Shown here piece by piece: positions 5,420-62,719 of a stretch of DNA of 64,000 nucleotides; position 1 is the stretch's first letter; the number at the start of each line of letters is the position of its first letter. The DNA lies in assembly GCA_008632985.1 (NCBI GenBank), contig QPGO01000164.1:62001-126000 (forward strand), read 5' to 3'. The position numbers and the translations under genes were made by a program. Under the pieces are notes generated by a model, which worked only from the letters and a program-made list of their open reading frames with translations, ran no database searches and was not told where the DNA came from. Source of the DNA: Psammoneis japonica. Taxonomy: Eukaryota.

Positions 5420-6059
5420 GGCGGCGTGGACGTAGAAGAAAGATGTAATTATTGACCTCGGCCAACATAACTGGTCTCGATAGGCACTTTTTAGATGATT
5501 TTATGTATTCCTACAACCGGGAAAGATGTTTCGGCCTGGACAGAGCAGGGGTGTAACTGCACTTTAAGAGGAACCCTGGCTATTTCTGAACAGCACTCCA
5601 TCTTGACTCTTCACAATTCATTCCATTTGCTACATAGAACTCTACTCTAGTAGAGGGCTAGACAGAGCCCGCTGATGAGTTGAGAGATGCCACGCAGTTG
5701 TCATCGAGTTTTGCTTCGGCAGCTGCCGGTACGTATGGACACACCGTAGCATGACAAGTGCCAGCAGTATGGCAGGGGTACAAACAACGACTCCGTAGCT
5801 CAAACCTGGTGTTGTGCAAACAACATAATATGCCGCTGGGTGATTGGATGGCAGATGTTATTTGACGAACCGATCTTTTTAATATTTTGTCTACAAAGAA
5901 TACATGCATTACCGAGACACCTGATTCGTCTCAAGCTCGGAGCAATTACAGAGCAAATCACGTTTGGTTTGTACAATTCAGTGCTGAATGAAAAATGTAA
6001 TGACGGAAGTGTGAAAAAAGAAATCCTCAGCAATGTAGCCAGAGAAGCAGCAAAGTTGG

Positions 6060-8279: not shown

Positions 8280-8639
8280 TGTTTCGTCGAGATCAGAATG
8301 AGAGCACCTCACTTGCACTGTGATGTTTTGTGTGCAGCCGCCATGAAATAGGCAACAACCAACAACAAGGATACATCACATCGATCCGCGTATCGTCGAG
8401 TCGTGGTTCGCGGTTTTGATTGCTGGTTCGCGGTTCGCGGATCGCGGAAACCGCACAACACACCAACACCTACCTGCAGACCAAACCTGCGCAGGATTAG
8501 CTGGACTAACCAGGCAATCAATCAATCAACTCAACGATTGCTAGTTAATGCTAGCGCCCTCTACACTTGTCACCAAAACACGACCGTGAACACCACGTGA
8601 GAATCTGTTGCAGTCGTTTGTTCTTGTCAACCACAAAGA

Positions 8640-13117: not shown

Positions 13118-16100
13118 TGTTGATCTAGGGCCGAACCCTCAGGGTACAACAGAACACTTAACAGTGCACCAACATGTCACAAACACTCCTGAGCAAGGGC
13201 CTTCGAGAGATGTGATTGGTGTGGAGTTGATCACTTGCGCCAACAGTTGCCCTGTCAATGTTGAATGTAGTCACTGCCATGCTCAGATCAACGACTCGTC
13301 CAGAGCAGCACCACTGCGACAAGTTCAACAGCAGTGACAGTGGCGCCACGCACCCGAGATGCTTGGTGCATCATCATTTGGTGTGCAAGTTCTCAAAAGA
13401 GTTCCACAATGCCACCAGAGAGGTGCTGGGAATCTCCCATTTCAGCTGAGCTGTGCTTGGTGGTGCTCCTGCACCTGACCCCATTCCAGCAGTGGTGATG
13501 GTGCTTGTGCCAAGTTTGCTGTGATGGTGGACAGCAAATGATGGGACACAAGGGAATTTCCAATGAGATGACAGCTCCCCACCTTCGTGTCAAAGTGACA
13601 AGCCTCTTGCAGGATCTAAGTCCTGCTCCCCCTTTTTTCACAAATCCAGTCAAAGGAGAGGAAGAAGAAATGGCTGGCAGCTTGCTGTCATCCAAGTTGT
13701 GTCATTTGGGTTGTGAATCTTCACCTTCTTGGAGCACTTGTGAGATGCAAGAACTCTCCACTCTCAAAACACATGTTCAGAGCAGCAGGGATGAGGTCAC
13801 TTGCTTCTGCTGCAGAGTTGCAGAAAATGATGACTGGCTTCCTTGGTTCATTGGGTTCACTTGTGCTGGTTTGAGCTTCTTGGAGCTTGTTGTGTGCAGT
13901 GGCCTTGACATTCAAGCCTGTCTCTTAATGTCATCTCAGCCACTGGGTGTCATCTGTGCTGGCAAATTCTTTGGGCTGGCTGGCAGTCATTTGACTTTGA
14001 CAGAGCAATTGAAGTGCACCAAAGTGACACAACTGGCATGTTGAGATGCACAAAAAAGGGGTGGAGCAAACAGAGAGCAGCTCTGCAAGTCATTTGATTT
14101 CCACACAAAGGAAAGAAGCAAATGACTGAAAATGTGGCACTGGCTGTGTTCACACGGCACAGTTGTTGTCACCTCTTGGCTTGCTCCAAGGTTTCAGTTG
14201 CTTGTGTGTTGTCCAGGCTTTGGAGTGTGCATCCACTGCATGGTGCACCAACTGAGATCTCTGGTGGGCCAGTCCCAGATCAAAATCTCCATTTTTTGCA
14301 GGTGAGCACAGTTGAGACAAGAAACTTTGTCATTTCACACATTTTGAGCATGCCAGCTGACTTGAGCAAACTCAACTTTTAAATTGTGAAAGACCTTGAC
14401 TCTCCAACAAAAACTCAAGAGATTTGGCATCCATGGCAAGAGACGAGAGGCGTGTGGAGGAGCGTGGAGCGGGAGGCGGGCTGACGTCAGTTTGCCTTGC
14501 ACAGACAAGAGGGAACCATGACAGATGGTGCCAACCGAGGGTTGGCAATTTTTCCTTGAAGATTTTAACAGTGTCGCAGGTTGCACGCAAAATGTGCTGA
14601 TTCGAGTGAGTCAAAAAAAGTTGTTTCAACGGAATGTTGTCAGTGGAAGAGGTCATTCCCACTTAGATTTTAGTCATCTTTCATCACTGCACCGTGCGCA
14701 GTGACAGATGTCTCGCAATGCCACCACCGTCACGTGTTTTCTGATGCCGCACTTGAGCGTTTCTAACACAAACTTCTGTGCTCTGTCAGCTGCAACGGCA
14801 TCAAATCCATTGCAACAACTTGCACGTTTTTCGACCTCATCTCCCAAAGATTGCATGGTGCGTGGCACTGATTCTATGTGTGCAAGACTTGGTGCATGTG
14901 AATGCTGATGACAATTGCCCCACGTGTCAGCTGTGGCTTTTCGCCACCACCAACCTTCTCCAAGACTCCAGATGGCCCATTCGTCGTCCCCGTTTGGTCG
15001 TGGACAAGACTGGGTGGTGACCCAGATGTTCAACACTTGTGTGTCAATTTCTGCCAGTCTTCGAAAGCATGCCACCAACGACCCCCGAACCCACGCCTTC
15101 GGCTCCTACAACCAGCCCTCGCCGTGGACATCAATGGGTGCAGAAGGTGTCCACTGCCCTGTCCCCTGCCATGGACAAAACACTGTCAAAATCCACACCC
15201 CAGACAGCCTCTGCTGCCACCCAGCAGGGAGCCACACCATTCTGCCGCAGACGTGCGTGGGCACAGAGACTCTCCAGCCGAGTTTTTACCCCTGCCCATG
15301 CTGCCACTCTGCCGGCACCCACTTCACCAGCTGTTTCTTGCTCCCCATGTGAGAACAAAGAGACTGACCCACTGGCTGTTCTCAGGAAAGCTCTTTGCAA
15401 GATTGACCAACTGGTGGAATCCAACAAAGCTGGTGTTGCTGTTGACCGAGTGGCCATCGATGGCATCATGCAAAAGGCGCTTGACAACGTTGACTTTCCG
15501 TCCCTCGATGCTTCACAAGCTCTGGAACATTTCCAGCTCAAGTTGAGGTGCCATCGTCACATGTTGTCTTTGCACTGGAGCATTTGGCCAGAATTCTTTG
15601 ACGGTGCAAGGAAGTCCTCAATCCAGGACTCCGTTGTTGAACCTTGCTCATGCTCTGCCGATGCCACATGCCACCCATTGTGGGGGGGTGCTGCTCCACC
15701 GCGAGATTCGTTCAAGCTGGATAAGATCCTCTACAATGATGTTTCAATGGATTGGAATCATCCCGATGAGATCCTCTACGATGATGTTTCAATGGATTGG
15801 AATCATCCCGACCGGCCTCCCAATTGCCAATTGGGTTGGGCCCGTTCTGGCCGCCCCCTGATCGCCGCTCCTGTCGCCATCCTGGCAGGCCTCCTGGTTT
15901 GATACGATGCCACCACCCCGGACGCCCGCCTGGCATCTCAATGATTTGCTCTTTGATCCATCATTGTGAAAGAGTTTTGAAGTTTCAGAGGTTTGCCATG
16001 CTGTGTCATGACGGCTCTTTCCTCTGTGCTGTCTGTTTTCTTTTGACAGCCGCGACTCTTGCCACTGCCTTTTTGCACTAGAACATCTTCAATCCTGTTT

Positions 16101-18269: not shown

Positions 18270-19700
18270 GTATGATGATGGGTTTTTGTTGTCTTCCATG
18301 CGTGGTGTCAGTAATCTTTGTGGACTGTCGGTTGGTCAATGGTCTGGATGGGTGGGGGTCGATTGTGTCGGGTTCGTTCAGTGTCTGCAGAGGGACAGAC
18401 CTGTGCCATCTTCCCACTGGGGTCACCTGGAGCTGATCTGAGAGGCAGGAACGCGGGATCCCCTGAGGCAACGGTGGGTTGCCCTGACTGTGGTGACTCT
18501 CATCCTCGCATTCACGTAGCCGCACACTTCAGAATGTGGCTTTTGCCACTTTTCTGAAAGTTTTGACGCCATCTTGCGGAGCATCGCCTTGGCTTCTTTG
18601 CCGAGAAGCCCGCGTCGCATGACACAACGAATGGTGTGAAGTGACGGTGTTGTTCCAGACATGGCTGAAGGCACTTGCGCTTCTTTTCACGTTCATGGCT
18701 TGCTGGGACTTCTTCTGGTGTTTTGGATGGGTGTGACTTCGCATCCGTGTCGGGGGAGCGAATGTCCATCACCATGTCTGTCCTTCCATCCCAAAATCTC
18801 ATGCCGAGAAGGTCTCCACGATCGCCACCCTTGGACTTGTTGGAGGTGGTGTTTCCTGGGGAACTGTTGGGGGTGCTTGAGCTTCCTGCGCTGTGACCAG
18901 CGGGGTTGATCAGAGGTTTGTCGCATGCGCAGGAAGGCTTGCAAGCCTTGCCCATTGGGCCACCGGGTTGTCACGCACTTCATCATGTCATGAGATGACC
19001 AGGCCACCCTTCTTGCACTGAAGAGCGTGATTCACAGAGAACTTGCATCCACATCCATCACAGCACTCCGGGAGGTTGGGTGGAGTGCTGCCACACCGCA
19101 GACAGAGTGTGCAGCGGAACTTTTGGCATGAGAGTTCCATGCCGCTCAGTGATGAAGGGCATGCTGACAGCCATGCAAGGTTGGGTGGGGTCATGAGGAT
19201 CGTTTTTAGGGTCTCCCCACATGCTTTGACTTTTCTGTTGGCTGCTTCCTGCTTCACTTCGCGTGTGGTGTCTTTGTGGACTGCAGAGGAGAACTGGGAG
19301 TGGCCGTGGAGTGAGTCGATCATGTGGGAGCATGTGAGAGCACTCACTTTACAGTTGTGGGCTGCGGACTCAGTTGGACGAGGGATGGACAGTCCCAAAA
19401 AATTGATTGGGAGGGCGGATGGGGCCATTCTCGGATCATTGTCGGCTGAGGTCTCGCCTGTCAGCACTTGCAGAAAGTTGCACTGCATTGTGCATTCTAC
19501 ATTGGTGAACGATTTGCCACAGTCCTTTGCTGCCCATTGGACATGTTGCCGTGTGGGGACTCCTGCAGACCTGCGCAGGCGTTCTGAGGGTGGTGAGTCG
19601 CGATCTTGGCGAGTCCTTGGATGACCGAGGTTCACGACTCGGCTTTTTCCACCAGCCAACGGTCATGTGCATCCGTCTCACCGACGAAGCCTCCGAGGTA
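18270..19700 (-). mobile_element. 3' fragment of a CRE-like (restriction-like endonuclease) non-LTR retrotransposon, degenerate
   Basis: CDGCGCKFSVNHALQCKKGGLVIS zinc finger, RGDLL..FW....VMDIR..DTDAKS, HEREKKRKCLQPCLEQHRHFTPFVVS, LSEKWQKPHSEVCGYVNARM, terminal QWEDG.GL; frameshifted. Confidence 0.85.
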
Positions 19701-20018: not shown

Positions 20019-22345
20019 ATGACAAAAGGCCCGGCATTGGTGTTTGGTGCTTCTGGTGTTCAGGGTCACGCGGTTGTGGAGGGCCTCTTGGATGCCAAAT
20101 ACAGTCCGGTCTATGGCGCAACTCGACACGCCACGGACAAGTATCTGACGGACGTGCTGGGAGCGCAATTGCTCCAAGTCAACCTGTCGTCTCGAGACGA
20201 AATCAAAAAGGCTCTTGCGGAAACACGAGCGACGAGTGTGTTTCTAGTAACAACGACTGACGTTCCTGTGGGTATCGGCATGACGGATGGATTTTATACG
20301 GCGCAACAAGAAGAATACAGCGTAACGTGTGGGTTCTTTCAAGCACTTGTGGAAGTGTACAACGACGACAAGCTGGAACGACACGTGGTGCTATCGACGC
20401 TGGATAATGTCGAGCGTATTTGTCAAGACGCTCTGAAAGAAACCGGCGAGACGCTGATTGAACCGCTGGATGATGGAAGTATCGCCGCACATTATTCAGG
20501 CAAAGGCAAGGCTGGAGAAGAAGCAATCAAGCTCTTGGAGCCCATTGAGGGACTCAAGTTGACTCTGTTGAGCTTGCCCTTTTTGCACGGAAACTTTCTG
20601 GGTTTCTTTACTCCCTTACCCAATGATGGTGCCACTCAGTGGACTGTAAGTGTAATTGTTGATTGAAGAAAAAGAAGCTTCTTCGTGTACTCACCACTGC
20701 GTTCTGCTTCTTTCCGTTGTAGATCTCGGCTTGCTTTGGTGAAGACAGCAAGGTCGACATGCTTTCTGAATCGGATCTCAAGTACATTGTTCGTAAGTTT
20801 CCTATTCGCGCCTCTCTATAGTCCTATTTCTGTGCACAACAGTTTTCTTATCACTCACCTTGAATGTTCTCTTTTTAGCTGCTGTTTTGGAAAAACCGGA
20901 CGAGTACAATGGCAAGAATCTTCGCGTTTCAGCTGAAAAAATGTCCATGGAGGAGGTTGCCTTTGAGTTTGCCGATTTGTTTGGCCGTGACGTGATTTAC
21001 AACCCGCTCGATGCCAAGGAAATGGCAGCACTGCCCATTCCGGCGGCGGGTTGCATGCACAAATGTGTCAATTTCTGTTGGCCAACCTCATGGAACACGA
21101 CGTCCAAACGACACGTTCCGTCATGTTTCCTCGAGAACCACAGAAATTTCGAGATTGGCTTTGGTCCATTCGGACAGTGACGCCTTTGAACGAGTAGGAT
21201 TGAGTGTCGATGGAGCGGAAATCATGTCGGTGACTGTGTTTGGTGCCACGGGAATGCAGGGGACCAGTGTCATTAAGGGACTCTTGGCGGATGAACGGAA
21301 ACGATACACGATTCGTGCCACGACCCGAAATGTCGATTCGGAAAAGGCCAAGGCTGTCGTGGCGTTGGATCCCGAGCGAATCACGCTGGTGCAGGCGGAT
21401 TTTGATGACGTGGCGTCCTGCAAAGCGGCGGTTGATGGGATTGATGGAGCCTTTTTGGTGACGGACTTTTTTGGTGGAGCCAATATGGACGCGGAAGCGG
21501 AAGAACGGCATGCGAAAAATGTGATTGATGCTTGTGAGGCGTCTCATTCGGTCAAGCATTTAGTGTTTAGTACTATGGAAAGTGTGGAGGAAATGAACAA
21601 GGTGCTGAAGTTGGGTTTGGAGGACATTGAAGACGCCAAGGGCAATTTGGGCACGCTCCCTCAGTTTGATGCCAAAGCCAGAGCTGCGGCGTATGCGAGA
21701 ACCAAACGGCTCAGCGTCACGTACATTCTCATGCCGTGCTATTCGGAAATGTTTTTTGACTTGATTCAACCCAAGAAACAAGTGGATGAGCACGGTACGG
21801 AGCGATTGGTGGTGGAGGTTCCACTCAAGGACGACACCAAAGTCATGTGTATGAGCGTCGATGACCTTGGACCGGCTGTGGCCAATATATTTGATTCTTA
21901 TCAGGTGAGTGTTGGCATGGTTATCCCCGGATCTTTACGAAAGCTTGTTATTTGTGACTAACGCTTTTTACTTCGAAATGCGTTCCAGTGCTGGGCTGGC
22001 CACGAAATTGGTTTGGTGACTGACTTTGTGACAGTCAAGGAAGCCACGGATGCCATTATGGAGGCGTTTACTGGGGAGGGTAGTGACGAGGATGAACAAC
22101 ACAAGGCCAAGCAACAAAAGGTAGACACAAAACCAGTGGAAATGGGCCAATACCTGGAAGCAAGAGATACGTACATGAAAGACATGGGTCAAATCTTTCG
22201 TTACATGTCTCACACGGATGCTGTTAAGAAACGACGGGATGTGGCGAAAACCATGAAGCTTGTTCCCAACGCCAAGCCATTGCGTTTGTGGGTGGAAGAA
22301 AACAAAGACAATGTTGCATTTCGAGAAAAGTTGGGTTTGCGCTAG
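20019..22345 (+). CDS. NmrA/HSCARG-like NAD(P)-binding protein with two tandem Rossmann domains, about 4 exons
   Basis: LVFGASGVQG and VTVFGATGMQG motifs, GAFLVTDF, KHLVFST, FDAKA. Introns at about 20646-20721, 20793-20878 and 21905-21988. Small frameshifts near 21050-21160. Confidence 0.85.
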
Positions 22346-22748
22346 AATACCGGTAGTTGGGAGTCTGCACATGCGAACCGAGCCACTCTATGAATAATAC
22401 ATCCTGTTGTACTTACCAATTAGCAGATGAGGGTTGATAATGGATAAATATTAGTAGTTCGATAGATAGAGCATGGTCACAGTGGAGGTACTAGTATCGT
22501 CCTGTTGCCGCGACGCTTGTGAGTGTGCAAGCTGATGGAACTATTTGTAAAGTAGGACTTGTGAGTTGATAATGAGAACGTACGAAGTTAGCTAGAGATT
22601 TCCATGTGGTTTGTTCATAGAGAGTATAAAGCACTACCGCATCACAATGTGATAGTAACCTCCTCAACTTGCGCGATCCGGGCGCCGCAAACTTCTAAAA
22701 AGAACGAACAACAGAACTTCTGAAACATGGGAAAGAAATTCGCCCACT

Positions 22749-23150
22749 CTATGATTCTGAAGCGTTGACTTCGGTACATAATTCAACGAGAATCCCGTCC
22801 GGGCAACGAACATATGACACGGTTTGCCCCCACGGTTTTTGCTTTGGTTCTGCCATTTCGGTTGCTCCCGCCTCGATTGCAGCCGCATGAGCCACCACTA
22901 CATCGTCTGTGACAAACGCAACCTCAAACCCAAGCGGAGATTTCGACGCGCTGGCTCGAACGTGACCACCCGCAAAATTCGCATCACCAAGTTCATGACT
23001 GGCAAAGGCAAGCGTCGTGTCGCCCGTGTCCAACTCTCCATAATCGCCAGATTCATGAAGAAACTTTCGACGAAAACCAAACGCCTTTTCAAAAAAACTC
23101 AGCGAGGCTTCCACATTGGGAACGTAGACAATTGTAAAGCCAAACTTCAT
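22749..23150 (-). CDS. VOC/glyoxalase/bleomycin-resistance family protein, bacterial-like, intronless
   Basis: MKFGFTIVYVPNVEASLSFFEKAFG..GDYGELDTG.TTLAFA..FEVAFVTDDV..KPWGQTVSYVRCPDGILVEL. Confidence 0.9.
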   Translation of the reverse strand: MKFGFTIVYVPNVEASLSFFEKAFGFRRKFLHESGDYGELDTGDTTLAFASHELGDANFAGGHVRASASKSPLGFEVAFVTDDVVVAHAAAIEAGATEMAEPKQKPWGQTVSYVRCPDGILVELCTEVNASES

Positions 23151-23969
23151 TCTTGTTGTCTCTTGTCACAACGCAACTGCAGGACGCAATGATGTTTTTT
23201 CAAGTGTCGGAGGGATTTCACGAAAAGGAAAATCAAAAGGATCCGTGACGTCATATTATCGATCCCGTCTAACCGTCGCCACCAAAAAAATTTCACCGCG
23301 CGAAAAAGATCTTTTTTTTTTGTGGAACGAATCAAGCAATCATGCTTTCAGATCTTTCGGTGTGTTTTCTTATCAACCAGGCAACGCCCAGAGACGTCCA
23401 GGTGCGTTTTGTAAACGTCTTTGTATGATTAACAAAGCTTCAATGCAAAAAGAGCTAGTAATGCAAGTTCCAAGAGAGAGAATTGTCAAAATAATGTGCA
23501 AATTGTTGTTTGTTTCCCGTGAAATCGACGAAAGTCGTTTGAAACACAGTACGCACCCTCCCTACCGTACAGTAGATAGGGCCCTACTTGACAAATAATA
23601 TCATGCAAGGCACTGTAGATACTACGGTAAGCTACCGGTACTCTCTACCGGTACAGTAGACTCTCTACTCTAGACGCTATCATAGAGCCTATTGCATCTC
23701 TCTAAGCTACCAGAGGGACTACTAATGCAGGTACATCCCTCTCTCTAGTGGAGAGAGAGTAGAGTAGAGACAAACTTATCATGCTGTCCAAATTGACCAA
23801 ATCCAACAAAGAGGTCAATGACTGCCGACTACCAACAACTTGTCAAAGGGATGAAGGTGCCAAGTCTCACAGGGTGTTCTTCGTCGGATGATCCCTGTGA
23901 CACCAGCATGAGTGCCTCTCTTGTGCGGTGTTGCAGCTAGGTGCATGTATAGATGCTAGGCAGAAAGCA

Positions 23970-24568
23970 GATGCCTCGAGTCGATGGTAGATTGTCCAAC
24001 TCATTCGTCAAGCTACTTCGAAGTGCATAAAAGGAAATTATGGATGGGCCTTCTCAAAAGTGTGTACTTGAGAAAGTGCTCGGTAAGCCTTCTTCTACCT
24101 TGGATTTGCCGGATGGTGCTTCGGCGTGTTGCACCAATTTCAACAGCAACTGAATTTCATCTTGCCTCTCTAACGGAATGATGTCGTGTAAGTCATACAA
24201 AATATTTTAAAATGCGGCCAAAATGCCAGTCACTGGAACGAGATATTAAATGAGCTCGAATCCGCATTTTTCATCAAGGTCTGTCTGGTCCAGTCTCATT
24301 GCATAGAGATCGCTAAGGTATATTCCACTCAGTTCATTCGACAAAACCCTGAGTCGATTCAAGTGCTCTTTGCACCCGTGGTTGGTGTTAAAGTCTTCCT
24401 TGCAGTAACAGCAATCACAGCAGCATACAAACGGCACTGTCATGAGTCGCTGTATTGTTTGTTTCCAGTGTTTCTTCCAGTCTTGTGCCAGCCGCCAAAA
24501 GTTGTCGGAAGATCCTTTGGTATGTTTGATTTTGTATTTTCCGTTCCGATACAAGTGAAGGTCCATAC
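23970..24568 (-). pseudogene. 5'-truncated duplicate of the 3' end and 3' flank of the class-3 lipase gene (36482-37079)
   Basis: ORF 24246-24566 is nearly identical to the last 107 aa of the lipase. Homology extends into the downstream flank and stops abruptly at about 24568. Confidence 0.85.
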
Positions 24569-24812
24569 ATCATTCCGATATCTACGTCCAGAGGACATTT
24601 AGCATTGAAGATTCTATCGAGAAAAGAAGACTGTGTTGCATATCTCTTGTCACTAAACACAAGACCCTTATGTATGTTTTGGTTTCGTTTTACACCGCTT
24701 GGGTGGACCGGGAAGTCTTGTTTCTTGTTTCAGTCTTTTTATCCCTGGGCCATCATGGATACAACAACATATTAGCACTTGCTTCGCTCTTGTGGACTAA
24801 ATCTGAGCCTTT

Positions 24813-25730
24813 CTAGTTGTTTGGCCAGGAAGCCCAATTGCTGCCGAAACCAGCAATGTCAGTGCCCTTGAGGTCACGCTGCGGGTCGAGGTAGACAGCA
24901 TTCATGACTGCTTCAGGAGCCTTCTTGAGATTGCCCTTTTTTTCCAGGAAGACCTTGCCAAAGTGAGCTTGACTCAAACCATGTCCAATCTCATGGAGAG
25001 CCACGGTCTCTAAATCGATGTTGCTCATGCCGTCGTCCTTCCAGCTAAAAGATGGATCATAATAGATCTCGCGAAAAGCTGCATCCAAGCGACCGTTGTT
25101 ATCGACGTCAGTAAACTCACCGCTCCCATCAATGAAACCAAATGTGTATGTAACACCAAGGATGCCGCCCCAAAAGTCGAGGTCGCGAAATCCAGCATGC
25201 TGGATATCAGCAAAAACATACGAACTGCCCACAGCACCACTCGACAAAATGAAAGCAACGACACCAATGTCGAGTCCATAGTCTGGGTTGCGAGTAAGGG
25301 GCAGCGTGGGGCAATTTACATTATCCCATGTGTTGGTGGCTCGGACAATGGCAGCATCAGTCATTGGTTGGGCAAGGCCACCATAAAGTGGCACTGCATC
25401 TAAAGTTGTGTCAATCGCGTAGGTGATGTCAGGAGACGACGTATCACCCGTACCCCAGGGAGCACGCCGAGAATCAAACGGGACGAAATCAAAGCCAAGT
25501 CATTTGTTTCCGACATCCTTGGCAATGACTGTTTGACCTTGAGCTTCAGGATCATCAGCAATGCATTCAACCATCGCGGCTCGGTGGCTTTCCCCAGAGG
25601 CCTCGAGAGCAATGTTTGTTGCATCAAGCACTTCACTCAACTGATCCTGCGGCTTCTTGGGGAGCTCACCAAGCCTGCGGGCTGCACATGTCTGCAAGAA
25701 TGCAAGAAAGGACATGAAGAAGAGCTTCAT
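24813..25730 (-). pseudogene. Secreted matrixin/M10-type zinc metalloprotease with one in-frame TGA at 25500-25502
   Basis: Signal peptide MKLFFMSFLAFLQ; zinc motif VALHEIGHGLSQAH and Met-turn AVMN. ORFs 25500-25730 and 24813-25394 are in the same frame (GNK*LGFDFVPFDSRR...DAVPLYGG). Confidence 0.8.
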
Positions 25731-25748
25731 TTTGTCTTTTGGTGTGTT

Positions 25749-26660
25749 TCAGCTGTGTTGCCATTGCAAGAATTTTAAACAGAAGACCAAGGGAGCCCAT
25801 GCAGAGCGGAAGGGAACAGCAGAGGGAGGCACGGAGGTGGCTGTAGAGACGGCAGAGTAGAAGGGTCGAAGGACGCAAGACGAAGGGCGTTTTGAGGAAG
25901 GCATGGGTGAGGAGGGAGCAGGGAGAGAGGAAGTGAATCGGAGGATGTGCGCAGAAAGGTGAAGAACGACGTTGTGGCCAAGAGTTTGGGTGGCCCACTG
26001 GGATGGGGTGGCCGCACGGCAGGTGCTCCCAAAGCGATCGGCGGACAGGCGACGCTGTGCAAAGTCAGCGGAGGGAAGGATTGCAGATGGAGACGATGAA
26101 GCACAGAGGAAGGCAGAGTGGGAGGCATCGGAGTGACGAAAGTCAGAGGAAGAGGACCAGGGTGGCTTGGGCTGAGAGCAGACGGAGGAGGATGTAGAAC
26201 CAAAGAGCAAGCGGTGAGCAAAGCAGCCGAGACCACCAAGGTGATCTACAGTGAAGGGGAGCAGGAAGATGCCATCGTTGTCAAGCAAAGAAACAACAAG
26301 GGATCCATCGGCAGAGGAAGCAGAGGGGCCAAGAAACTTCAATCTCGTGCTCGAGTGGTGTGCCTCAGTTGAAACAGGAGAAGAGGGGGCAGGCAGACCT
26401 GGAGGAGGGCGAGAGGAAGCTTGAGGGACAGTGACATCCACTGCAATGCAGTGATGGCGGGAGGGAGTGGAAAGGGAGGCGGGAGGGGGAACTGAAATGC
26501 CGACATCGGCGGGATGGAGGAGCGGGCGGGTGGGAAGCAGGTTGGTGGGTTCAAGATGAACGTCATTGGGGGATCGACAGAACTCTGCAAGAGGACCCAA
26601 AGTTTGGGCTAGGATGAAAACAGTGTCATGGAGATTTTGTGAGAGCACTTCGCCCTGCTC
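25749..26660 (-). mobile_element. 3' fragment of an RLE-type non-LTR retrotransposon directly upstream of the matrixin gene
   Basis: LHD.V...V.LEPTNLLP...HPADV..IAVDVTV..LLPFTVDHLGGLG resembles the PD-(D/E)xK endonuclease C-terminus of CRE-like elements. Confidence 0.6.
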
Positions 26661-29099
26661 TCTTCCTTCTTGACATCATGACAAATGTTGTTCCCGCATC
26701 TTTCACTCATCCTCAAGCCATGAACAGCACATTTGTCCCGCGTGCAATGTTCCTTCATCAGACATTAAAATTGTGTCATGTCATTTTACAAGTTTGCTTT
26801 CTGCGAAATCGTCCTCCCGCTTGAAGCCTGTCCGTCGTGCGGTGCTTCTCTGCCGACAGCCAATGATTGGCGTCGCAGCATCGTGCTGATCTGTCTTCAG
26901 CCCATTCCGTTGGAACATTGGGGTTGGAGGCATTTTTGCAGGACAGACAGACAACACCGCAGTGCAAGATGCCATGCATTGATGATTGTGGATGACGTGG
27001 CGAATTTGCACTCGAGAAACTCTGGTTGAGTTGTGGGTTCTGTGCTCACTTTTTGGCTTTTGCGCACCGGTTGACATGGCAACAGCAGTTGACAGCATTG
27101 GGAATGTGTTTGCAAGCCATGCAGTGAGCTTGGAGTTGGCAAGGCTGAATGTGGGCCAGCTGGCAAGCTGCAAGAAACTCCCCGACACAGAGGAGCCAAA
27201 AAGGTCGCCACGCGACACTCTCGACAAAGGAGGAGTGGTGTCATTCAAAGGCAAAGGCTGGGAAGTCATCAGGAATCCAAGAATGTGGGCTGGCAAGTCA
27301 TCAGGAATCTAAGAGTGTGGGCTGGAAAGTTGTTGGGAATCCAAAGGTGCATCTCATGTTGGAGAATTGTGGCAAACAAGCAAGCTGCAGATGAGAACAA
27401 AGAAACAACAATCTCTGGAGGAGTGCCTTGCTGTCAAGAAGCTGTCCAGGGTCTGCTGAAAGAGGTCGTGGCAAGGTTGTGCTGGGGTCAGCAAGACCAA
27501 GCATGTGGCACTGGCTGTCAGCAAGTCATGACACTCCAATGTTGGTCCGGGAAAATGCAAGCAAGAACGCGGCTGGGCTGAGTGCAGAAGCACAAAGGAT
27601 TTGAAGGAGTGGGCATGTGACACCATTGCCAGGTCAGGATGACAGGCAGATGGTCACATGGAAATCACAAGGAAGACCAGCGAGTGTTGGAAGATTGTTC
27701 TGGCTAAAGGTGCAGGTGCTGGTGTCTCCAAAGCAGGAGAGCTCGCCAAAAGAGCCTGGGCGTCCATCAGGAGACACCGCATCAGAGAAGGACAAGGCAA
27801 TCTGCATCTGCATCATGTTTCTGTGCTGAGCTGGAGCAATGCTTGCCAACAATTAAAAACTCCAAATGCCTGCTTGATGTTTCTGCCAATCTTCATTGTG
27901 CACGAATGTCGACTCTTCTTTTTGATGGTTGTCAGCTCGCAAACAATTTGGTTGTCTTTGCTTGATTTAGTTGAGTTGCCAGTTTTGCTTTTTGAGTGCA
28001 CATTGCCAAACTTGTCAAGCATGCATGCATTTTGTCCCTTCTCTTTCCATTTGCAAGCTGCTCTCTTTCTGTTTTGCTCTGTTTCTGCCAGATCTGTCCT
28101 TTTTTCCCACTGCACACACCACAAGCCGCCTGCCGACCTAAAATCTGCCAACGACAATGGCACATGATCCCTGTCATGATCCACTCTGTCCTGGTCAAAT
28201 GTCTGACAACAATGACCAGCGTGCTCTTGCCAACATTTCCAAAGGTGTCCCCAGTGCTCTTCTTTCTTTTGTTGTGGCCTCAACAGTGCATCTTCCTCTC
28301 CCAACCACTCTCTGAGTGACAATGGCGCCTCCATCTCTTTTGATGCATCAGTGCCTCTCAACCATTCCCTTGATTCAAGCACCAAAGGATTCTTGTCTCT
28401 GTCTCTTCATGATGGCAATCCATCCCACCTTTTTCCAGATGGCAGCAATCAAGAGTTTCAACCATCCATCCACGGTGATCCTTCCTCCAATGAACCACCA
28501 TTGGATTTTTTCTTCAACAACAATGATGTTGACTCTCATCCTGCACTGCTGCCGGAAGAACTTGACATTGGCTCTCTTGCCTCAGACCCTCCCAATGATG
28601 GCATCTTCTGCAAGGACTTCCTTTTCATTGAGGAGAGGAGTTTGATGTTGCTTCTTTCAGCACAATTTTCTGTGTCATCCTCTTCCCTCCCTGACAATGA
28701 CAAGGACAATGATGGATTGTGCTGCTTTGATGCACTTGATTTGGAGGAGATGGAAGAAGCTCAACTGTTGCAACCTCCCTGCATTCATGAAACCAATGCC
28801 ACCAAGAAGTTTCATCTGGTGGAGGAAGAGCTGGTTTTGTGATGATGAAGAAGCATCATCTCTCCCGTGGTTTGTACAAGGCTTTTCTTTCTTGGGCTAA
28901 ATGTGCCAAGGAGAGTGACTGTGAGTGCAAGTCTCTCTCCCACTCTGCCACCTTGTGATGCATGAAAGCCAAGCATCTTGATTTTGTTGGTGTCCAGAGC
29001 CCATTTGCTCCACAGCACATGTGGGTCCCAATTTCCCCCCAGTGCATGTGGCGCACCAATTTTCCTTTCTGCATTGTGTGAGAAGGGTCTTTTGCAATC

Positions 29100-30700
29100 C
29101 CCAGGTTGTCCAGTCTTGTCAGTGGTTGCACAATGAGAAGCGCTGCCCCAAAACAAACCAAGTGCAATTGTGACTCTCTTGGCACTGGTGACTGGTGGAA
29201 GCAAGTGGAGCATGATCTCAAATCTTCCCTTGATCAACTTGGCAATGGCTGCCCCTCTTGGTCACACTTTGTTTGCTCAGCTGTGCTGTTTGATGATTCC
29301 ACCCTTTTTGACAACATGGGACATTTACAAGCACAACCCATTCTTGTGCCATCAGGCAATTTTGACAATGAGTGTTGTTGCAGCCACTCCCTTTGGTTGA
29401 CATGTGGAATGGTGCCACTGCACCCCAAGACAAGCAATGAGTGCACCACAAACTGTCAGTCCTCAAAGCTTGGACAGGAGATGCACATCAAGTTCTGCCA
29501 CTGCACTTTGCATGAGATGTTCACTGAGTTGCTTCAACTGTCAAAGTGAAAGACTGGTTTCCCGATTGTGATGCCATCTCTTGACTTTTTTCATCTCCAC
29601 TTTCAACACCAGTGCATGACAATCGGCAATGCAAAAGGTCACAATGACATGGCTTGTCACTGCAACTCCCGTTCCAGCAACCTCTCCCAGATGAACAGGG
29701 GTTGTGACATGCCACAGCATTTTGGTGACAACCCCTTGTTTGGCTGCAATTCGGTGGAACAAGAGAACATCAAGGGGACAGTGGAGGCTGCCATGACAGT
29801 TGTGGAGGAAAGGCATCATGGCAAGGCAACCGCCGCTTGTGAATGGTGCAAGGACATTTCTCAGCACTTGGCTCATCCCGTGTTTTGGGACATCCCTCAC
29901 GGCAGAAGAAAGCATGGCATTTTGGGCATCCTCTCCTGGGAACTGTCACATGCATTGCACTTGGGTCTTTGCAAGCATCTGCTTCATGCCTTCTTCAACT
30001 GACAGCATCAAGTCCAAGAAAACATGTTGTCATGGCACCATGAACATCATGTTGCTGGGGAGTGCACAATGGATGACTGACCGTCTGTCACATTCAAGGA
30101 GCTCCCCTAGCTGTTTGACAAAGCTGAGTTTGAGAGACACTTTGGAGTTGTCACACATGTGTCCAGGAGGCAAAGTGATTGGAAAATGCCACAAACTCCA
30201 TTTGAGAACAGAGTCACCAACCAGACTGGTCTTTCTGGCCAAGAGCATCCAGGTTTGTTGCTTGTGGCACTTGCTGCAAAGAAAGGCATGCTTTCAAAGG
30301 AAGACAAAAGCCTCAAGCCACTGGAGAGTTGCTTTGCCCACCTCATGTTCATGTTGTTGGATTGGATGCAGCACTGTCCATGTCCTCTGAAAAGGAAAGC
30401 TTTCTCACTTGGCTTCAGAATTGCCTTCTCAAGTGTCTCCAATTGTTTCAATTCATGGTCGGCCCATTCAAAGAGTGCCGCTCTCATTCCGGACTTTGCA
30501 TGTCCAAGTTCCATTGCCTTCTTCACTTCCTTGCAATGCTGACATTTTTTTTGGTGGAATCTGTGAAGCTCTTCTCAAGATGCTTTTGAAGCAACCTGCT
30601 AAAAACACATGTTGTTGGCAAGACAGGCTTGACCTGAATTTGATGAATTGCCACTGCAAGGACCTTGTGGCTCATTGTCACACTGCACAGAGGGTGGGAA
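29100..30700 (+). mobile_element. Plavaka/CACTA-like DNA transposase remnant
   Basis: TGDWWKQ, LFDDSTLFDNMGHLQAQP, IGNAKGHNDMAC, HGILG...ELSHALHLGLCK, RQSD...P.TPF...T.QT.LSGQE.PGLLL, KFHCLLH in successive frames. Confidence 0.6.
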
Positions 30701-33659
30701 ATTGACTTGTTCCAATGGGACAAGGTTGCTGTTGCCTGTTCCCTTGGTGTGTGACAGAAAGTCAAGAGTTGGTCCAACTGGGGTGTCCATTGCAAGAGCA
30801 GCCGAACCTGCATTTGTAGCAACAGCTGGCTGATTTGGTTCCTCTGCCTCCAAATTGTTTTTCAACAAAACAAAGGCAAGCCTGCACCCTGAGCTGGGGT
30901 TCCCAGGTTCATCAAGAGCACCATCCAATGCCCAGTTGGAGCTTGTGATGATGTTGCACCACTTTGTGAAATGTGCAAAATGTCCAGGGCAGCATGCCTC
31001 AGCTTGGATTTTGCCAAAGGGACACTGGCAATGAAATGATTGTGCAAATGTGCACATTCTTGAATGCCATCCTCAGCAGCTGGATCACTGCTTTCAGGTG
31101 CAGCTGGCACATCATCCATGTTGTGCAGGCTGTTGATCAGATCATCCTCATGATGCAGGAACACATTGGTGAGGAGAAACTTTGCAGTGATCAACTGGGC
31201 AAGTGCCTCCTGAATGGGTCACAGTTGGCCCATTGTTCTTGGCACAGCAGTTGTCAACTTTGTTGTGGCTCTGCTTGCATCATTTCATTGGCTTTTGAGT
31301 GCAACAAAGGCAGACAGTGGCAGTGAGAGGCAAGAAAAAATTCACCCACAGAGACCAGACCTGTCGTCCAAAGTGGCAGGCAGTGCAGAGATGGGCTGCA
31401 TTGCAATGATGCATGATGGTGCTGTTTTCCTCGACCGTCAATTCAGTGCCAGTGGGAGGGGCATTGAACAAGTCAACAGGACACGCGAGTGCACTGACCT
31501 GCAAAAGACAGATGAACCATGAAGCCATTGTGAGCAACATGGAGAACATTTGAAGAAGAGGGGGAAAAGGATTTGCATCACCTGCACCACCATGATTGGA
31601 GCTGCAGACTCTGCAACATTTCTCAAAGACACTTTGCAGGATGTTGGGAAACAAGGCACTGCCAGTCTTTGGTGGCAGAATGTGATCAATTTGTGTTTGA
31701 AGGTGGGGTGCAAAGGCACTTCATTCTTGATTCATGAAGTTGAGGGCCAAGGAGCCAACCTTCTCCCAAAACTTTTGACAAACTTTGGGTTTGTTGAACA
31801 CATTGTCAGACCTGTCCTTGTCATTTTTTTGGGTGTTTTGGGAAGACAAGTTCCCAAACCATCAAGGTGAAGGGACATTTGGAGGTCACACTGGCATCCA
31901 GCAGTGAGTGGCAATTCATGGTGTTTCCAATCTCTTGTGTTTGGATGGAAAACCAAGAGAAAATGGAAGAGCACAACCCACCTTCAAGTTGCCCACTTTC
32001 TTTGCAAGGTTGGTCTCCAAATTTGTCATTTTGCTGGACAAAGGGTCTGTTTCTGAGCTTTCTGGAGAGAGGCAATGATCTTGTTGGAAACGGCAATTTT
32101 TGCACCATGGGATCTGCACTTTTGCTGTGCAGTTGCTTGTGTGCATCTTTTTGTTTTGGTTTTTGCATGGGCTGTGCATCCTCCAGCAAAACAAAAGCTG
32201 CACTCTGCAATCCCTGCCAGACATTTGGTTTGGGTTGATGCCACAGGTGGCAGGGTGTTCAGAGGCTCCAAGCAGCTCAGAAGTCTTGCAGGAAATGGTT
32301 GTCAGACACATCATCAGAGGAGTCAGCTTCTTCATTGATGGAGGCTGCAGCAGCAATGGCAGATGCTGGGTCATCAGCCAGTGGAGCAGCTCTGGACAAA
32401 GAGCCTTGATGTTGCCAAGGGCTGGTCCCAGAGCCTTGCCTGGGCTGCCCAGGAGGAACTGAGCCCAGTTCTTGAGCACCATGAGCAGCACCTCCATCAC
32501 GACCTCCACCACAGCCACCGGTGGCACTGGCGCAACTGGCATTGTTGCGGCCAGCAACTGGTTGGTTCAGCTTCTTCTTTGAAACAAAATTGTCACTGAA
32601 AAAGAGATGCTGGTGGAAATCAACTGTGACAGCGAGGCTCACAATTTGGCCAAAAACATGAATTGTCCCTCCCTCACAAGAAACAAAAATGCAAACTCAA
32701 GTTGCACGCGACACATGAAAATGAGAGCAGTGGTGACAGGCAGCAGCATTGCAGATGGGACAGAGTAAAATGCAGGACACAAGGCAAGAAAGAGGAAACA
32801 AGCAGCAAATGCATGGAGATCAGGCACAAAATGCAAACGACTGGCACTTGTGCACATCTTTGCACACAGACACACAGACATGCAACCTGTGCTGCAAAGA
32901 AAGACAGGCAACAGGGAAGGGCACAAAGGTGAGCAGAAGCAGGAGCATGTGAAACGAGATTGTGAGAAACACAAGACATGCAAAAAGACTGATCATTGAC
33001 ACAAAGTTTTCTCCAGTTGCAGGTGACGCTTTGGCCAACCAAACAGAAGGAATGCAAAATTGATGATTGGAGGATGATGCTGTTGCCTGGTGCAGATGAT
33101 CGTGAAGAGAGCAAGAGTGGTTGCAAGGGAGAACACAAGGACCAAAACATCACACCTGCAGTGTGGGGACTGCAAAGCACAACAAGGACTGGCAGAGAGC
33201 AGGACAAAAAAAAAGAGTGAGAAAAGGGGAGCATTTTTTAGCACACAGTGTAGAAACAACAAAACAGAACAATTGCACATTGCACATCAGACAATGAGCA
33301 GCACAGAGCCAATGTGCAAACAGCTTGGCAAGACAATTGAACATCAATGTTGTCAGAAATGAACAATGTCAGAATGTCGTTGCAAACACACAGTTGTTGA
33401 GATGGAAACAGAAGCAAGCAACAAGTTTTGTCAACTGTTGTTTCCTGCTTGGAAGGTTGGTTTAACTGTGGACAGATGCAAAAACAATGTTGAAACAAAC
33501 AGATGTAAAAAGTTGTCAAGAATGTGTGTGCAAAGAGACTGATTTCCATCAACTGTTAAATCCCACTTGGAAGGTTCCCCAGGTTGACAGTTGTTCAGGG
33601 CTTGTCAAGAACACAGGATGCTGAACAAAAGAATGTGAACTCTGAACAAGAGCCACAAT

Positions 33660-34330
33660 GTTTTGCAGACATGGGGCAAGCAATGCAGTCAATGTGCAAA
33701 ACAGAGCACAATCTGCAGGACACAGAAGATGAAAGCATCCAACACAATGTGGGACAATGCACAAAAGCCATTTGTCACAAGACTGGAGGAGGGACAGAGG
33801 GACGTGGTCATGGCGCCAACACTGGAACTCCTCACATTGATCTCCTCATTCAGTGCCGCAAATGAGAAGATGTGTCTGCATGTCCAGGTGGTCAAGGCTT
33901 GGAAGCCGCTGGTGCTCATTTGTCAAGATGAAGGAGAGGAACTTCAAGATCATCACAACAGGTTCATGAGCATTGTCAAGGTGGTGGAAATGTCCTGTGA
34001 CAGGATCATCTCAGAAGAAATCACCAAGAAAGAAGATGGGTTCAGCAAGGACACTGATGACACTCAGAACAAAGAACAATGCAAGCCGTTGGTGGTGATG
34101 CTGATGGAAGGCACCAAGGAACATTGGCTTGTCTCAAAAGACCCACATTGGCAGCCCACACTGGGGGTTGACAGTTGCCCCAATTTTTTGACCAATGAGG
34201 CACTGCAGGTGTTGGGCACATGTGGGGCCAACAAGAAGCCTGAGGGAACAAGTTCTGTGTAGAATGAGAAGAAGCAGATTGGATGCTGGGAATGCAATGA
34301 GGTTGGGCACATGTGAAAAAGGACTGTCCT
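33660..34330 (+). mobile_element. Ty1/copia (CoDi-like) gag fragment
   Basis: Q...EELQDHHNRFMSIVKVVE, Q.TLGVD.CP, and zinc knuckle CWECNEVGHM*KKDCP at about 34280-34330. Confidence 0.6.
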
Positions 34331-36752
34331 GATGATGATCCTTTTTTGGCAGAGTCAGATGATGTGAGCCATGGGAGTCAGTGGAGTGGTCAAAGCAGCA
34401 TTGGGTGACAATGGCTTTCATGTGTCATGTCCTCCTGTGCTTGATGTGCATGAGGCCAATCAATTGACGGCTTGTGCAAAGGAGTGTGTTGGAACATTGG
34501 GGTCAGAGGCAGTTTTTGCAGGGACAGACAGACAAGGTTGCAGCAGTGCAAGAATTGATGACAACATTTGTGGACAATGTGGCAAATTTGCACTTGCAAA
34601 TCAGGTTGAGTCGTGGGTTTTGTGCTCACTTTTTGGCTTTTGTGCATCCGGGTTGACCCAGCAACAGCAGTTGGTGGCACCAGGAATGTGTTTGTGCCAC
34701 ACGGTGAGCTTGGAGTTGGTGAGACCAAACATGCACTGGTTGGCAAACCATGGAACTTTTGCACATTCTCCTTTCTTGATCTGCTCCAGCTCTCTGAATG
34801 GAGCTGTGTGTGACATTGGGCCCTTGACATCGGGCCCACAGAATTCCATGTGCAAGCTCTGCAGTGAAACTGCCAAGCAGCAGACATGCAAATGATCACC
34901 AATGGAAAAAGAGGCAATTTTGCTGATGCATCTCCTCCTTCACTCTTGAAGCACATCATTTGTGGTTTGCCTGGGCACACTCAGCAGAGTCAAAGAATGT
35001 GCCCAGCCCTCCTTTGTTCCATTTTTTGCACCCAGTGGCAAAACAGTTGTCTCCTCACAATTTGTGCAAAAATGGAAAATGCTGGTGGGGTCAGGTGCGT
35101 TGTTGCAAATGGGTTGATCTGAAATGTGTCTGGCCAGTTGCCAACATTTTCCATTTTTTGCAGAGACAAAATTCACTGTGGAAGACAGACACGCCTTTTT
35201 TTTTTCTTGGCACTGGCCCACACAGTTTCTGCATGATGACTCCACAGAAAGACTGCTGTTGTGAGCAGATCTTTTTGTGGTTTGCCTGTCATTCTCTTTT
35301 GCTGCAGGACTTGTGTCATTCCAGTCCTGGTGCTCAGGGAGTCCACCATGTTGCTGCTGTCTTTGCCCTTTGGTGTTCTGCCTCAATGCCAAAATGTCTG
35401 TTCTTGCAAAACCTGGTGTCACACACGTGGGGTTTCATGTGCAACAGCACCCATCAAAGCTGTTGTGGAGGCAACACACAAGAAAAGAAGCAGCAGAGCA
35501 CACACACAAATGTGGTGCTTGTTCATCCACAGCATCAGCTGCTGTTGTGGAACACAATTGCAAGGATTTCATGTTCCAGTGTTGCTCTGTTGGCTCAGTT
35601 GACATCCAAGACAACCAAGCAGCAAAAAACAGATGTGAAAGGAAGTGCATCATTGCTGTGTTTCAAACTGGCTTTCCTTCTGGCAAATTTTTGTTGGTGT
35701 TCTGGTGGTGGTCTCATTGCACAAAAGGTGACATTGTTGATTTTTTTGATCTACTTTTTGTCCAGTCCAGTGCTTTTTGATGATGGAGCTTTTCTTTCTG
35801 AGAGACAAGCAGCCCAAGTGTTGGGAGTTTTGGCTGCACAAGTGTCCTCTGGACACAGCCAGATGTTGGAACATGTTGGCATTGAACCAGCTGGGACATG
35901 TGGCCACACTGTGACTTTCATGTTTGACTCAAGATGCCAGCAGAGAAAGGACCCATCATTCCACCATCAGCAGATGGTTGGCTGGCAACATTGAGTGCAC
36001 TTGACCTTGCATCCATGAGCACTTGTGGGCTGGCTCAGGGGCCTCACACTTCCACTTGGCTGACAAAACCAAGAGATGCAGGTTGCTGGTGGCTCTGTCA
36101 TGCTCAAGGGGCTTCACTGGGGGGCATTTTGTGTTGAACAAGAAGGCTGCTTCTGGTGTGACCAATTTTGCCCTTCAGTGTCCTCCCAAGCCAGCATTGA
36201 ACAGATTGACATGCTGCAGAGCAACAGTGCTGAGATGGGTTGTTGCACACCTCTTTTTTAGACTGATGCGTGCGTTTCAGCATGCATTCACCCCACACTC
36301 CCACATGGTTTGGTGGCATCAAGCTGCCACTCTGTGCCTCTGTCATTGCTGGTTTACATGCAGACCAGACACACAAGAGCACACACCAAAGTTTTCTGTC
36401 CGTGTGCACCAAGACGTGCAGTGCACAGCCATCGGCACAGTGGGAATGATCGGGCTGATGACATCATGCCAGCAAGGAAGAAGATGCCTCAAGTCGATGA
36501 TAGAAATTTTCCCATTTGTCCGTCAAGCCACGTACAGAGATTGTAGATGGAGCTTCTCAAAGGCGTGTACTCTTCATCTTTGAAAGTGCTAAGTAACCTT
36601 CTTCTACCTTGGATTTGCTGAATGTGCTTTGGCGTGTTGCAACAATTTCAACAACAACTGATCTAATCTTGCCTCTCTGGCGGAATGTAATCATGTCGTA
36701 AGCCATAGGCACATTACAAACAAAGACAGTGACCAATCACTGGATCGAGATA

Positions 36753-38120: not shown

Positions 38121-38299
38121 GGTGAACGCAGGAAAGCCCATCACACAAAATGAGCAACGACGAGGGCGAGGATACGACGACGAGGTGCGATGCAGCTTTT
38201 GTCGTGTTTGGCATAAGAAATCGAACAAATCGGGCTCTATTTTTCACGAAAAGCAGTGTCCGTTGAAAAAATGTGAGCGAGCATGGAGCCCACAAACAA

Positions 38300-40190: not shown

Positions 40191-40211
40191 CCATTCACAA
40201 TTAAACACGAA

Positions 40212-54253: not shown

Positions 54254-54728
54254 CTTGCGTTTTTTTTTTTTTCAAAGTCTTTGACAACGCGGACAGGGAC
54301 GATGTTGGCGTCGCCGCTTTTGCAGAGCGTTGCAATGTGTGCCATGGGGGTGATGACCCTGTGCATCGAAATCGAAACCGCAAGTCCTCCCATCAGGTCG
54401 CGGATTTCAGTCCCGAGTACAGTATGGTAATTGACTTCTTGTCTCGCGCACGTAGTGCGCGGTTATTAGACTGTGTAGGTGTGTGTACGTGTGTGAGGTG
54501 TAAGTAGAATATACGTAGAATTACTGCTGAGTGAGTTGACATGCGGTGGATTTTCCGCCGGTACACAATCTACGTGGTCTACTTGGAAGATAAATTTATG
54601 TTTATCTCCGATGCTTTTACACATCATTAAAATTGCTTCTGTCTTTTAAATGTGTGTGCCGCAATTCAAAAATCTTACAGAACACCCCGAAAGAATTCTG
54701 GAATCTGCACAAAAAAATTTCTATTTAA

Positions 54729-62712: not shown

Positions 62713-62719
62713 GACCATT

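Follow-up and report, generated by a model that had tools for sequence, protein, structure and literature searches.

Here we report the analysis of a 64,000-nt stretch of the Psammoneis japonica contig QPGO01000164.1 (positions 62,001-126,000 of the forward strand; hereafter the window, numbered from its first nucleotide), in which a degenerate protease gene lies beside the tail of a retrotransposon. The gene is a single-exon matrixin-like (bacterial-type metzincin) pseudogene on the minus strand (24813..25730), and its 5' part forms the left end of an 11-kb block of DNA that is almost devoid of TA dinucleotides (block 4, 25451..36259). A preliminary description of the locus had proposed that hypermutation spilled from the retrotransposon into the host gene and inactivated it. 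Our results make it likely that a mutator converting TpA to CpA or TpG leaked past the retrotransposon into the single-copy protease gene. The death of that gene is only partly attributable to such a leak.

A matrixin-like pseudogene with a single interruption

The minus-strand frame of the gene runs from an ATG at 25730, which opens a signal-peptide-like N-terminus, to a stop at 24815-24813. Its sole interruption is an in-frame TGA at 25502-25500, in agreement with the preliminary description. The 305 codons contain neither a frameshift nor another stop; the other 304 are open, and the zinc motif HEIGHGLSQAH is intact. Residue and codon numbers are counted here from the first codon of the stop-to-stop frame at 25748, by which the TGA is codon 83 (codon 77 from the ATG). 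The 305-residue product, read through with X at the stop, was used as the homology query and returned 705 homologues among 3,656 candidates scored, the best of them 66% identical over 92% of the length. Most homologues are about 305-325 residues long, and the few that are named are bacterial (Acidobacteriota, Chloroflexi, and Gemmatimonadota). All column comparisons refer to 120 listed homologues (119 at column 64) out of the 705, proteins at most 66% identical to the query.

Based on a predicted structure, the term matrixin-like appears fair at the level of the fold and not as strict family membership, because P0002, the intact sequence nearest to the query, has a model that matches the fold of karilysin and the matrix metalloproteinases (MMPs) while the Pfam score is below threshold. 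The match of the product to Peptidase_M10 (PF00413) is weak (21.8 bits versus a gathering cut-off of 24, E = 1.9e-4), this family is annotated on 7 of the 120 listed homologues, and comparison of the protease sequence with PDB and NCBIfam gave no match. The AlphaFold model of P0002 (predicted local distance difference test, pLDDT, 83; predicted template modeling score, pTM, 0.83) has its best PDB matches in the catalytic domains of karilysin and MMP-13, with a Foldseek probability of 1.00 and a template modeling score on target of 0.60-0.70, and the neighbors of the family in the Atlas are bacterial clusters carrying PF00413. Canonical matrixins have the zinc motif HExxHxxGxxH and a Met-turn. 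The family described here resembles matrixins such as karilysin in the predicted MMP catalytic fold, in the three His and the Glu of its HExxHxxxxxH motif, and in an invariant downstream Met (M282). It differs from them in sharing only about 20% sequence identity, in a Pfam score under the gathering threshold, in the Ser that replaces the canonical Gly, and in an extra N-terminal helix and strand; a cysteine-switch propeptide was not seen in it. The gene has no intron and its identifiable relatives are bacterial or metagenomic, which makes it a candidate for horizontal acquisition.

A high-copy retrotransposon tail upstream of the gene

Upstream of the gene, on the same strand and with its 3' end towards the ATG, lies the degenerate, 5'-truncated C-terminal tail of a retrotransposon encoding a reverse transcriptase (25749..26675, minus strand), so the neighbor had been recognized correctly as a retrotransposon fragment. 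Its 308-codon open reading frame (ORF) has 236 homologues at E ≤ 1e-3, the best with 46% identity, and aligns to the last ~250 residues (about 900-1280) of proteins of 1,000-1,360 residues. Seven of the ten full-length relatives scanned match RVT_1 at E < 1e-3, four of them at or above the 29.6-bit cut-off, with scores near that cut-off. Tyr occurs once in the tail, compared with 2-13 times in 30 relatives; the GYF of the relatives, for instance, reads GCF here. We conclude that this ORF is a hypermutated, 5'-truncated, high-copy retrotransposon tail, which may be of the non-LTR (non-long terminal repeat) type with a C-terminal restriction-like endonuclease (R2/NeSL/CRE-type). As in such elements, the relatives carry RVT_1 in their central part and, towards the C-terminus, a Cys/His motif that precedes conserved RPADV...AIDVT motifs, the copy in the window is 5'-truncated, and its family is high-copy. 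A short A-run near 25776-25785 was seen by eye only, and no search was made for a poly(A) or simple-repeat tail or for target-site duplications.

Copy number was estimated from the contigs of DNA run X1, which derives from the same sample as run X2; the latter covers only 22000-24796. An X1 contig of 1,425 nt corresponds to 24405-25829 with no differences and a depth of 57, and neighboring unique DNA has a depth of 53-55. Summed depth is 57 over 24937-25737 versus 6,226 over 25738-26004 (3,594-6,226 for the repeat, which is present in about 100 copies), and over 26806-30000 it amounts to 101-827, or about 2 to 15 times the single-copy value, rising towards the gene. The repeat thus ends within 25738-25829, which gives its boundary a precision of about 45 bp. 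Homology to the relatives fades near residue 290, at ~25805, and the repeat end is probably near 25800-25805, which puts the end of the retrotransposon ~70 bp upstream of the ATG.

A TA-free run extends from the repeat into single-copy DNA

TA dinucleotides are distributed very unevenly along the gene. There are 21 TA starts at 24814-25451 (639 bp) and none at 25452-25775, a 325-bp gap that takes in the first 279 bp of the coding sequence (93 codons) plus the 45 bp preceding the ATG. This gap is the left end of block 4, with the retrotransposon tail at the edge of that block, and at least 286 bp of it, including all of its coding sequence, is single-copy. The preliminary description had put the TA-free part of the gene at about 300 bp and the reach of the mutator at a few hundred bp beyond the transposon; both estimates stand, and the change in depth from 6,226 to 57 marks where the TA-free state passes from repeated into unique DNA. 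The likeness to leakage of repeat-induced point mutation (RIP), which it also drew, does not extend to the shape of the edge. The edge is a step and not a gradient, with no TA down to 25452 and then five in the next 70 bp (25451, 25442, 25420, 25401, and 25384).

Outside the TA-depleted blocks, none of the 33,138 sliding 279-bp windows is TA-free. The minimum in seven Pfam-supported host ORFs is 2 TA per 279 bp, with 0 of 4,470 windows TA-free. When the ten blocks are set aside (1,410 gaps), the longest TA-free gap is one of 262 bp (55038-55300) within a TA-poor insert at the left margin of block 6; ordinary host sequence reaches no more than 214 bp. Back-translation of the present proximal amino acids with host codon usage gave a probability of 0.00025 for the absence of TA; this simulation over-predicts TA (29.4 simulated versus 19 observed in the distal part), and a fairer value is about 0.01.

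The distribution of TA also bears on the idea that the matrixin-like gene itself was targeted as foreign DNA, rather than being collateral damage from the transposon. Its named and automatically labelled relatives are bacterial, from the three phyla listed above, it has no intron, and together with block 4 it is bracketed by a 600-bp direct duplication (described below), all of which would suit a foreign target. However, the distal 639 bp have a TA observed/expected (o/e) ratio of 0.51, versus 0.55 for non-block DNA, and have gained Tyr codons with TA (F157Y, F177Y, and F201Y), and the gene lacks TA precisely at the end adjoining the transposon block. We regard targeting of the gene itself as improbable. 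Retrotransposon 3' transduction of the 5' end of the gene was considered separately and rejected, since the homology with bacterial proteins runs uninterrupted through 25452 and the depth is single-copy.

TpA-type substitutions at conserved sites lie in the TA-free part only

Three codons in the TA-free zone carry residues that are rare or absent among the homologues and that a transition at TpA would produce. Codon 55 is CAC (His; 25584..25586, minus strand) where 116 of 120 homologues have Tyr and one has His, which fits a change of TAC to CAC. Codon 62 is TGC (Cys; 25563..25565, minus strand) where Tyr is found in 101 of 120 homologues and Cys in none, which fits TAC to TGC. Codon 64 is GCT (Ala; 25557..25559, minus strand) and follows ATT; 96 of 119 homologues have Thr at this column and 4 have Ala, which fits ATT-ACN to ATT-GCN, where the TpA spanning the two codons becomes TpG. 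The three sites are conserved in 97%, 84%, and 81% of homologues, respectively. Tyr55 and Tyr62 map to a confident beta-strand of the P0002 model (residues 59-68, pLDDT about 90) and not to a disordered leader.

Among the window-specific changes at columns with ≥80% conservation, those of the TpA-transition type make up 3 of 5 in the zone versus 0 of 15 in the distal part (Fisher p = 0.009). Six columns have a Tyr majority; both of those in the zone have been lost, whereas all four distal ones keep TAC or TAT, so that the distal two-thirds retain Tyr codons as well as TA, as had been stated. The preliminary description had also singled out the segment SHRAAMVECI as suspicious. This holds for H55 and C62, which fit an origin from Tyr, but not for the rest: the Ala residues of RAAM are ancestral and not derived from Val, and V60 (GTT), where 108 of 120 homologues have Ala, is not a TpA-type change.

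The same observations could in principle arise by chance and lineage-specific divergence, if the N-terminal 93 codons merely happened to be TA-free and His55, Cys62, and Ala64 were ordinary substitutions. The N-terminal third is indeed less conserved, with 24 of the 117 columns conserved at ≥90% falling in positions 1-99; 31 of 120 homologues deviate at two or more of the proximal conserved columns, and host ORFs can be TA-poor (0.021 TA per bp in an NmrA-like ORF and 0.017 in a glyoxalase ORF). Yet the zone forms one continuous stretch with an 11-kb TA-free block, no control window is TA-free, all three changes are exact TpA products yielding residues that very few homologues have, and the proximal/distal contrast remains. 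An origin by chance is therefore very improbable.

TA-depleted blocks across the window and the direction of mutation

Ten blocks, together 26.3 of the 64 kb (41%), have TA o/e ratios of 0.02-0.13 and TG/CA ratios of 1.2-1.9, while the rest of the window has 0.55 and 1.2, respectively. The TA-depleted regions lie at 8562-10711, 13268-16079, 18312-19207, 25451-36259, 38238-40085, and 55973-63974. Block 4 is the largest of the blocks, with TG and CA at 1.4-1.9; TA and CG o/e are 0.07 and 0.54 in its part at 25451-27705, and 0.03 and 0.12 at 27968-36259. A Pfam scan of 110 ORFs across the window found host gene families only outside the blocks and no in-block family at E ≤ 0.001, and the 20 ORFs scanned in block 4 yielded nothing beyond a single DUF5888 match below threshold. 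CpG o/e is 0.12-0.59 in most blocks, with two exceptions at 0.74 and 0.98; the first of these, 55973-61827, keeps its CpG at 59% GC. Since two TA-depleted blocks keep CpG, the erasure of TA and the decay of CpG are separable processes.

The direction of the change can be read from a repeat pair (54455-54720 and 61711-61976), in which 15 of the 20 TA of one copy, the unmutated one, read CA or TG in its partner, while the reverse is found at none. The loss of TA is mutational and directional, from TpA to CpA or TpG by A:T to G:C transitions. Because the edges of the mutated domains fall a few hundred bp outside or inside the repeat ends, a domain-type target, for example chromatin, would fit better than homology-based targeting.

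Two duplications accompany these blocks. An LTR-like direct repeat is located at 54455-55578 and 61711-62328, the left copy of which has a 650-bp insert, with hairpin arms at 54751-54901 and 55098-55248. A partial copy of the 3' end of a lipase gene (23975..24570, minus strand; ~95% identical in the core) has its partner at 36480-37080; the direct duplication comprises the last 107 codons and the downstream region of a class-3 lipase gene (36756-38141, minus strand), and these ~600-bp fragments bracket the matrixin-like gene and the 11-kb block 4.

The stop codon and the death of the gene

At the column of the in-frame TGA (25500..25502, minus strand) the 120 homologues have 106 Gln, 8 Arg, 5 His, and 1 Met. 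In the tree, Arg stands at this column both in P0002, the sister sequence (support 0.94), and in P0064, the relative next to it (0.89), which favors CGA to TGA, a CpG transition, as the most parsimonious and most likely origin of the stop, as the preliminary description had suggested; an alternative route would lead from CAA through TAA to TGA. By the logic of the genetic code, transitions at TpA (A to G or T to C) can produce a TGA only from TAA and never turn a sense codon into a stop, so the TA-erasing mutator alone did not make it. CpG o/e is 0.54 in the adjacent transposon segment, 0.59 in the proximal zone of the gene, and 0.77 in its distal part, the difference between the two parts of the gene being too small to call. 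Because CpG loss is this modest beside and inside the proximal gene, an origin of the stop in a transposon-directed process is not established.

The open state of the remaining 304 codons and the intact HExxH...H motif would also be expected if the gene were alive and the TGA were an assembly error, spliced out, read through, or decoded as selenocysteine. We consider this hardly credible. Run X1 contains the TGA form only, in a short-read-derived contig that is identical to the window over 24405-25829 with no variant listed, although X1 may come from the same sample as the assembly. The alignment with homologues is collinear through G80-N81-K82-X-L84 with no inserted residues, on which grounds an intron removing the TGA was rejected, and this column lacks Cys and Trp in every homologue, on which grounds decoding as selenocysteine or Trp was rejected. 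The gene is dead, and it died recently, given the absence of a frameshift or a second stop and the intact HEIGHGLSQAH motif.

A more serious alternative, although one that we rather doubt, is that an ordinary pseudogene came first, silenced by the retrotransposon ~70 bp upstream or by the CpG nonsense mutation, and that the TA-free domain spread over it later, in which case the leak would be a consequence and not the cause of gene death. Several observations agree with this order of events. Transitions at TpA cannot create the stop, which fits CGA to TGA with Arg in the two nearest relatives; the repeat edge at 25738-25829 nearly abuts the ATG at 25730; and the distal part carries seven changes of non-TpA type at columns conserved in ≥90% of homologues, including Cys302Gly, a number that only 2 of the 120 homologues reach. 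On the other side, the death of the gene is recent by the evidence just given, and the change to His of Tyr55, conserved in 97% of homologues and part of a core strand, could itself disable the protein; one sequence cannot give the order of events. The claim that hypermutation inactivated the gene is only partly supported: the TGA is not a TpA product, and the retrotransposon, with its end ~70 bp from the ATG, may already have silenced the gene. Its death is not assignable to the leak alone; we attribute it to the combined or sequential effect of an insertion near the promoter, leaked missense changes, and one nonsense mutation.

Evidence against a leak and a proposed mechanism

Leakage of the TpA mutator into the gene, likely as we consider it, has to be weighed against a number of observations. 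The diagnostic amino-acid changes are only three, and the loss of Tyr columns (2/2 proximal versus 0/4 distal, p = 0.067) is not significant alone. A codon-junction test, in which NNT followed by A was compared with NNC followed by A, gave 0 of 8 proximally versus 85 of 297 elsewhere (p = 0.11). Ancestral codons were inferred from proteins no more than 66% identical, without DNA of a close orthologue or paralogue; a scan of metagenomes with P0002 yielded relatives (L001-L003) of 45-55% identity, too distant for codon-level ancestry. The repeat edge is bounded only to 25738-25829, and the TGA gains no independent support from run X1, which may stem from the sample used for the assembly. The distal part deviates at 7 of 93 columns conserved in ≥90% of homologues, one of them the otherwise invariant Cys302, and all seven changes are of non-TpA type, so that relaxed constraint may predate the leak or be independent of it. 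Other edges in the window also differ from the one in the protease gene. The outer 265 bp of the left repeat copy (54455-54720) escaped with 20 TA kept, which means that the mutated domain starts inside the repeat there; beside the lipase gene TA is kept as far as 38238, a point ~100 bp 5' of the first ATG (38141); and at the edge near 40,000, comparison with the inverted paralogue at 50-52.6 kb gave 3 versus 0 asymmetric TA sites, which is not significant. Leakage is thus not seen at every edge.

With these points in mind, we propose the following mechanism for a leak into the protease gene. A:T to G:C transitions yielding CpA and TpG have stripped transposon-rich DNA of nearly all its TpA, and in most blocks CpG has also decayed to TpG and CpA. 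The 5'-truncated, high-copy retrotransposon fragment forms the left edge of the 11-kb mutated block, ~70 bp upstream of the protease ATG, and the mutated domain would overrun the edge of the repeat by ~350 bp into unique DNA, ending abruptly at 25452. Every TpA in the first 93 codons of the gene would have been converted in this way, turning two conserved Tyr of the beta-strand into His and Cys and a conserved Thr into Ala. Since unique flanking DNA and both strands are affected, the mutator presumably acts on chromosomal DNA in place; it may be aimed at a chromatin-like domain and not at repeated sequence as such, and a DNA adenine deaminase is a candidate for the enzyme. The TGA must come from another process, most likely CGA to TGA at a CpG.

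Comparison with known mutators

The closest known system is that of the alga Bigelowiella natans, as described in the main text of one 2026 preprint (Mettrop et al., bioRxiv 10.64898/2026.01.13.699255). Mutation-accumulation lines of this organism show only A:T to G:C changes, only at TpA, in two integrated viral regions, and hypermutation of this type is marked by a de novo mutation rate about 1000-fold above normal in living lines. According to the same text, coding sequences that are poor in TpA and rich in CpA and TpG are enriched for reverse-transcriptase and endonuclease domains, 124 clusters are reported for the 95-Mb genome, and an ADAT2-like DNA adenine deaminase is proposed (bioRxiv 10.64898/2026.01.13.699255). 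Nowhere does the main text of the preprint use flank, spread, boundary, neighbour, adjacent, or CpG, and it does not describe leakage (bioRxiv 10.64898/2026.01.13.699255).

In the light of that text, the window shares with B. natans the A:T to G:C change at TpA on both strands and a clustered footprint poor in TpA and rich in CpA and TpG. There the system is confined to foreign or mobile DNA; here the edge of block 4 is a reverse-transcriptase tail at ~100-fold depth, and most other ORFs in the blocks have no Pfam match. The two also differ in that the depletion in our window is at saturation (TA o/e 0.02-0.13) over 41% of its length, as compared with 124 clusters in 95 Mb, in that most blocks here also lose CpG, and in that B. 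natans is a rhizarian, whereas the host here is probably a diatom (stramenopile).

The latter assignment rests on an MFS/Atg22-like transporter ORF (46743-48095, plus strand), the named relatives of which are almost all diatoms, at 39-47% identity. They include Epithemia, Entomoneis, Phaeodactylum, Thalassiosira, Skeletonema, Cyclotella, and others, with one EukProt row labelled Alexandrium. Judged by these sequence relationships, the host is probably a diatom and not a chlorarachniophyte.

Leakage of RIP into single-copy genes next to repeats, as in Leptosphaeria maculans, is well known (PMC2973834). RIP leakage resembles the case described here in that a repeat-directed mutator alters single-copy genes within a few hundred bp of degenerated transposons, by proximity, and that the resulting missense changes contribute to gene inactivation. 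The differences lie in the chemistry, the shape, and the setting of the process. RIP changes C:G to T:A, mostly at CpA, and creates TpA and stops, whereas here TpA is destroyed and stops cannot be created. RIP leakage forms a gradient that extends to at least 930 bp in Neurospora crassa, unlike the step at ~350 bp in our window; and RIP is fungal, premeiotic, and triggered by duplication, whereas the host here is not a fungus. Leakage next to repeats in L. maculans and N. crassa is reportedly the subject of a further paper.

The literature searched contained no report of TpA hypermutation in diatoms. Targeted TpA hypermutation, described only recently, has so far been reported in one preprint and from one alga, and that report says nothing of what delimits the targets. 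A leak into a unique flank provides direct sequence evidence on the mechanism: it indicates that the mutator acts in place on chromosomal DNA, on both strands, and that repetition of a sequence is not what defines its reach; it also argues against editing of the transposon RNA before reverse transcription. Genome defense would then have a collateral cost to host genes, as RIP has in fungi, with the distinction that the damage is of the missense kind, with Tyr replaced by His or Cys, and never nonsense. If the host is a diatom, the system extends to another, distantly related lineage that is ecologically dominant and for which good genetic tools exist, and the search for the enzyme and its guide becomes experimentally tractable.

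A broader reading combines these elements, and we offer it tentatively, as one that falls just short of what we would endorse in full. It holds that a diatom genome has the same TpA-erasing DNA mutator as B. natans, which saturates transposon blocks and is coupled to CpG decay but separable from it, and that the target is a chromatin-like domain whose edge overshot one transposon end by ~350 bp, killing or finishing a host gene, and undershot another by ~265 bp. If this were true, the mutator would act in place on chromosomal double-stranded DNA and not on retrotransposon RNA, and the system would be widespread in the SAR (stramenopiles, alveolates, and Rhizaria) supergroup, with a measurable collateral cost to neighboring genes.

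Other features of the window

The two TA-poor host ORFs mentioned above, NmrA-like (20996-21958, plus strand) and glyoxalase (22752-23165, minus strand), have normal CpG, and neither adjoins a block. Their low TA probably reflects codon usage, and host genes of the window vary two-fold in TA density. The inverted duplication at 40208-42378 and 50106-52606 spans ~2.3 kb, is 80-90% identical, and contains two long ORFs without a Pfam match. Finally, a tandem array with a period of ~30 bp is located at 44231-44525, inside ORFs on both strands.

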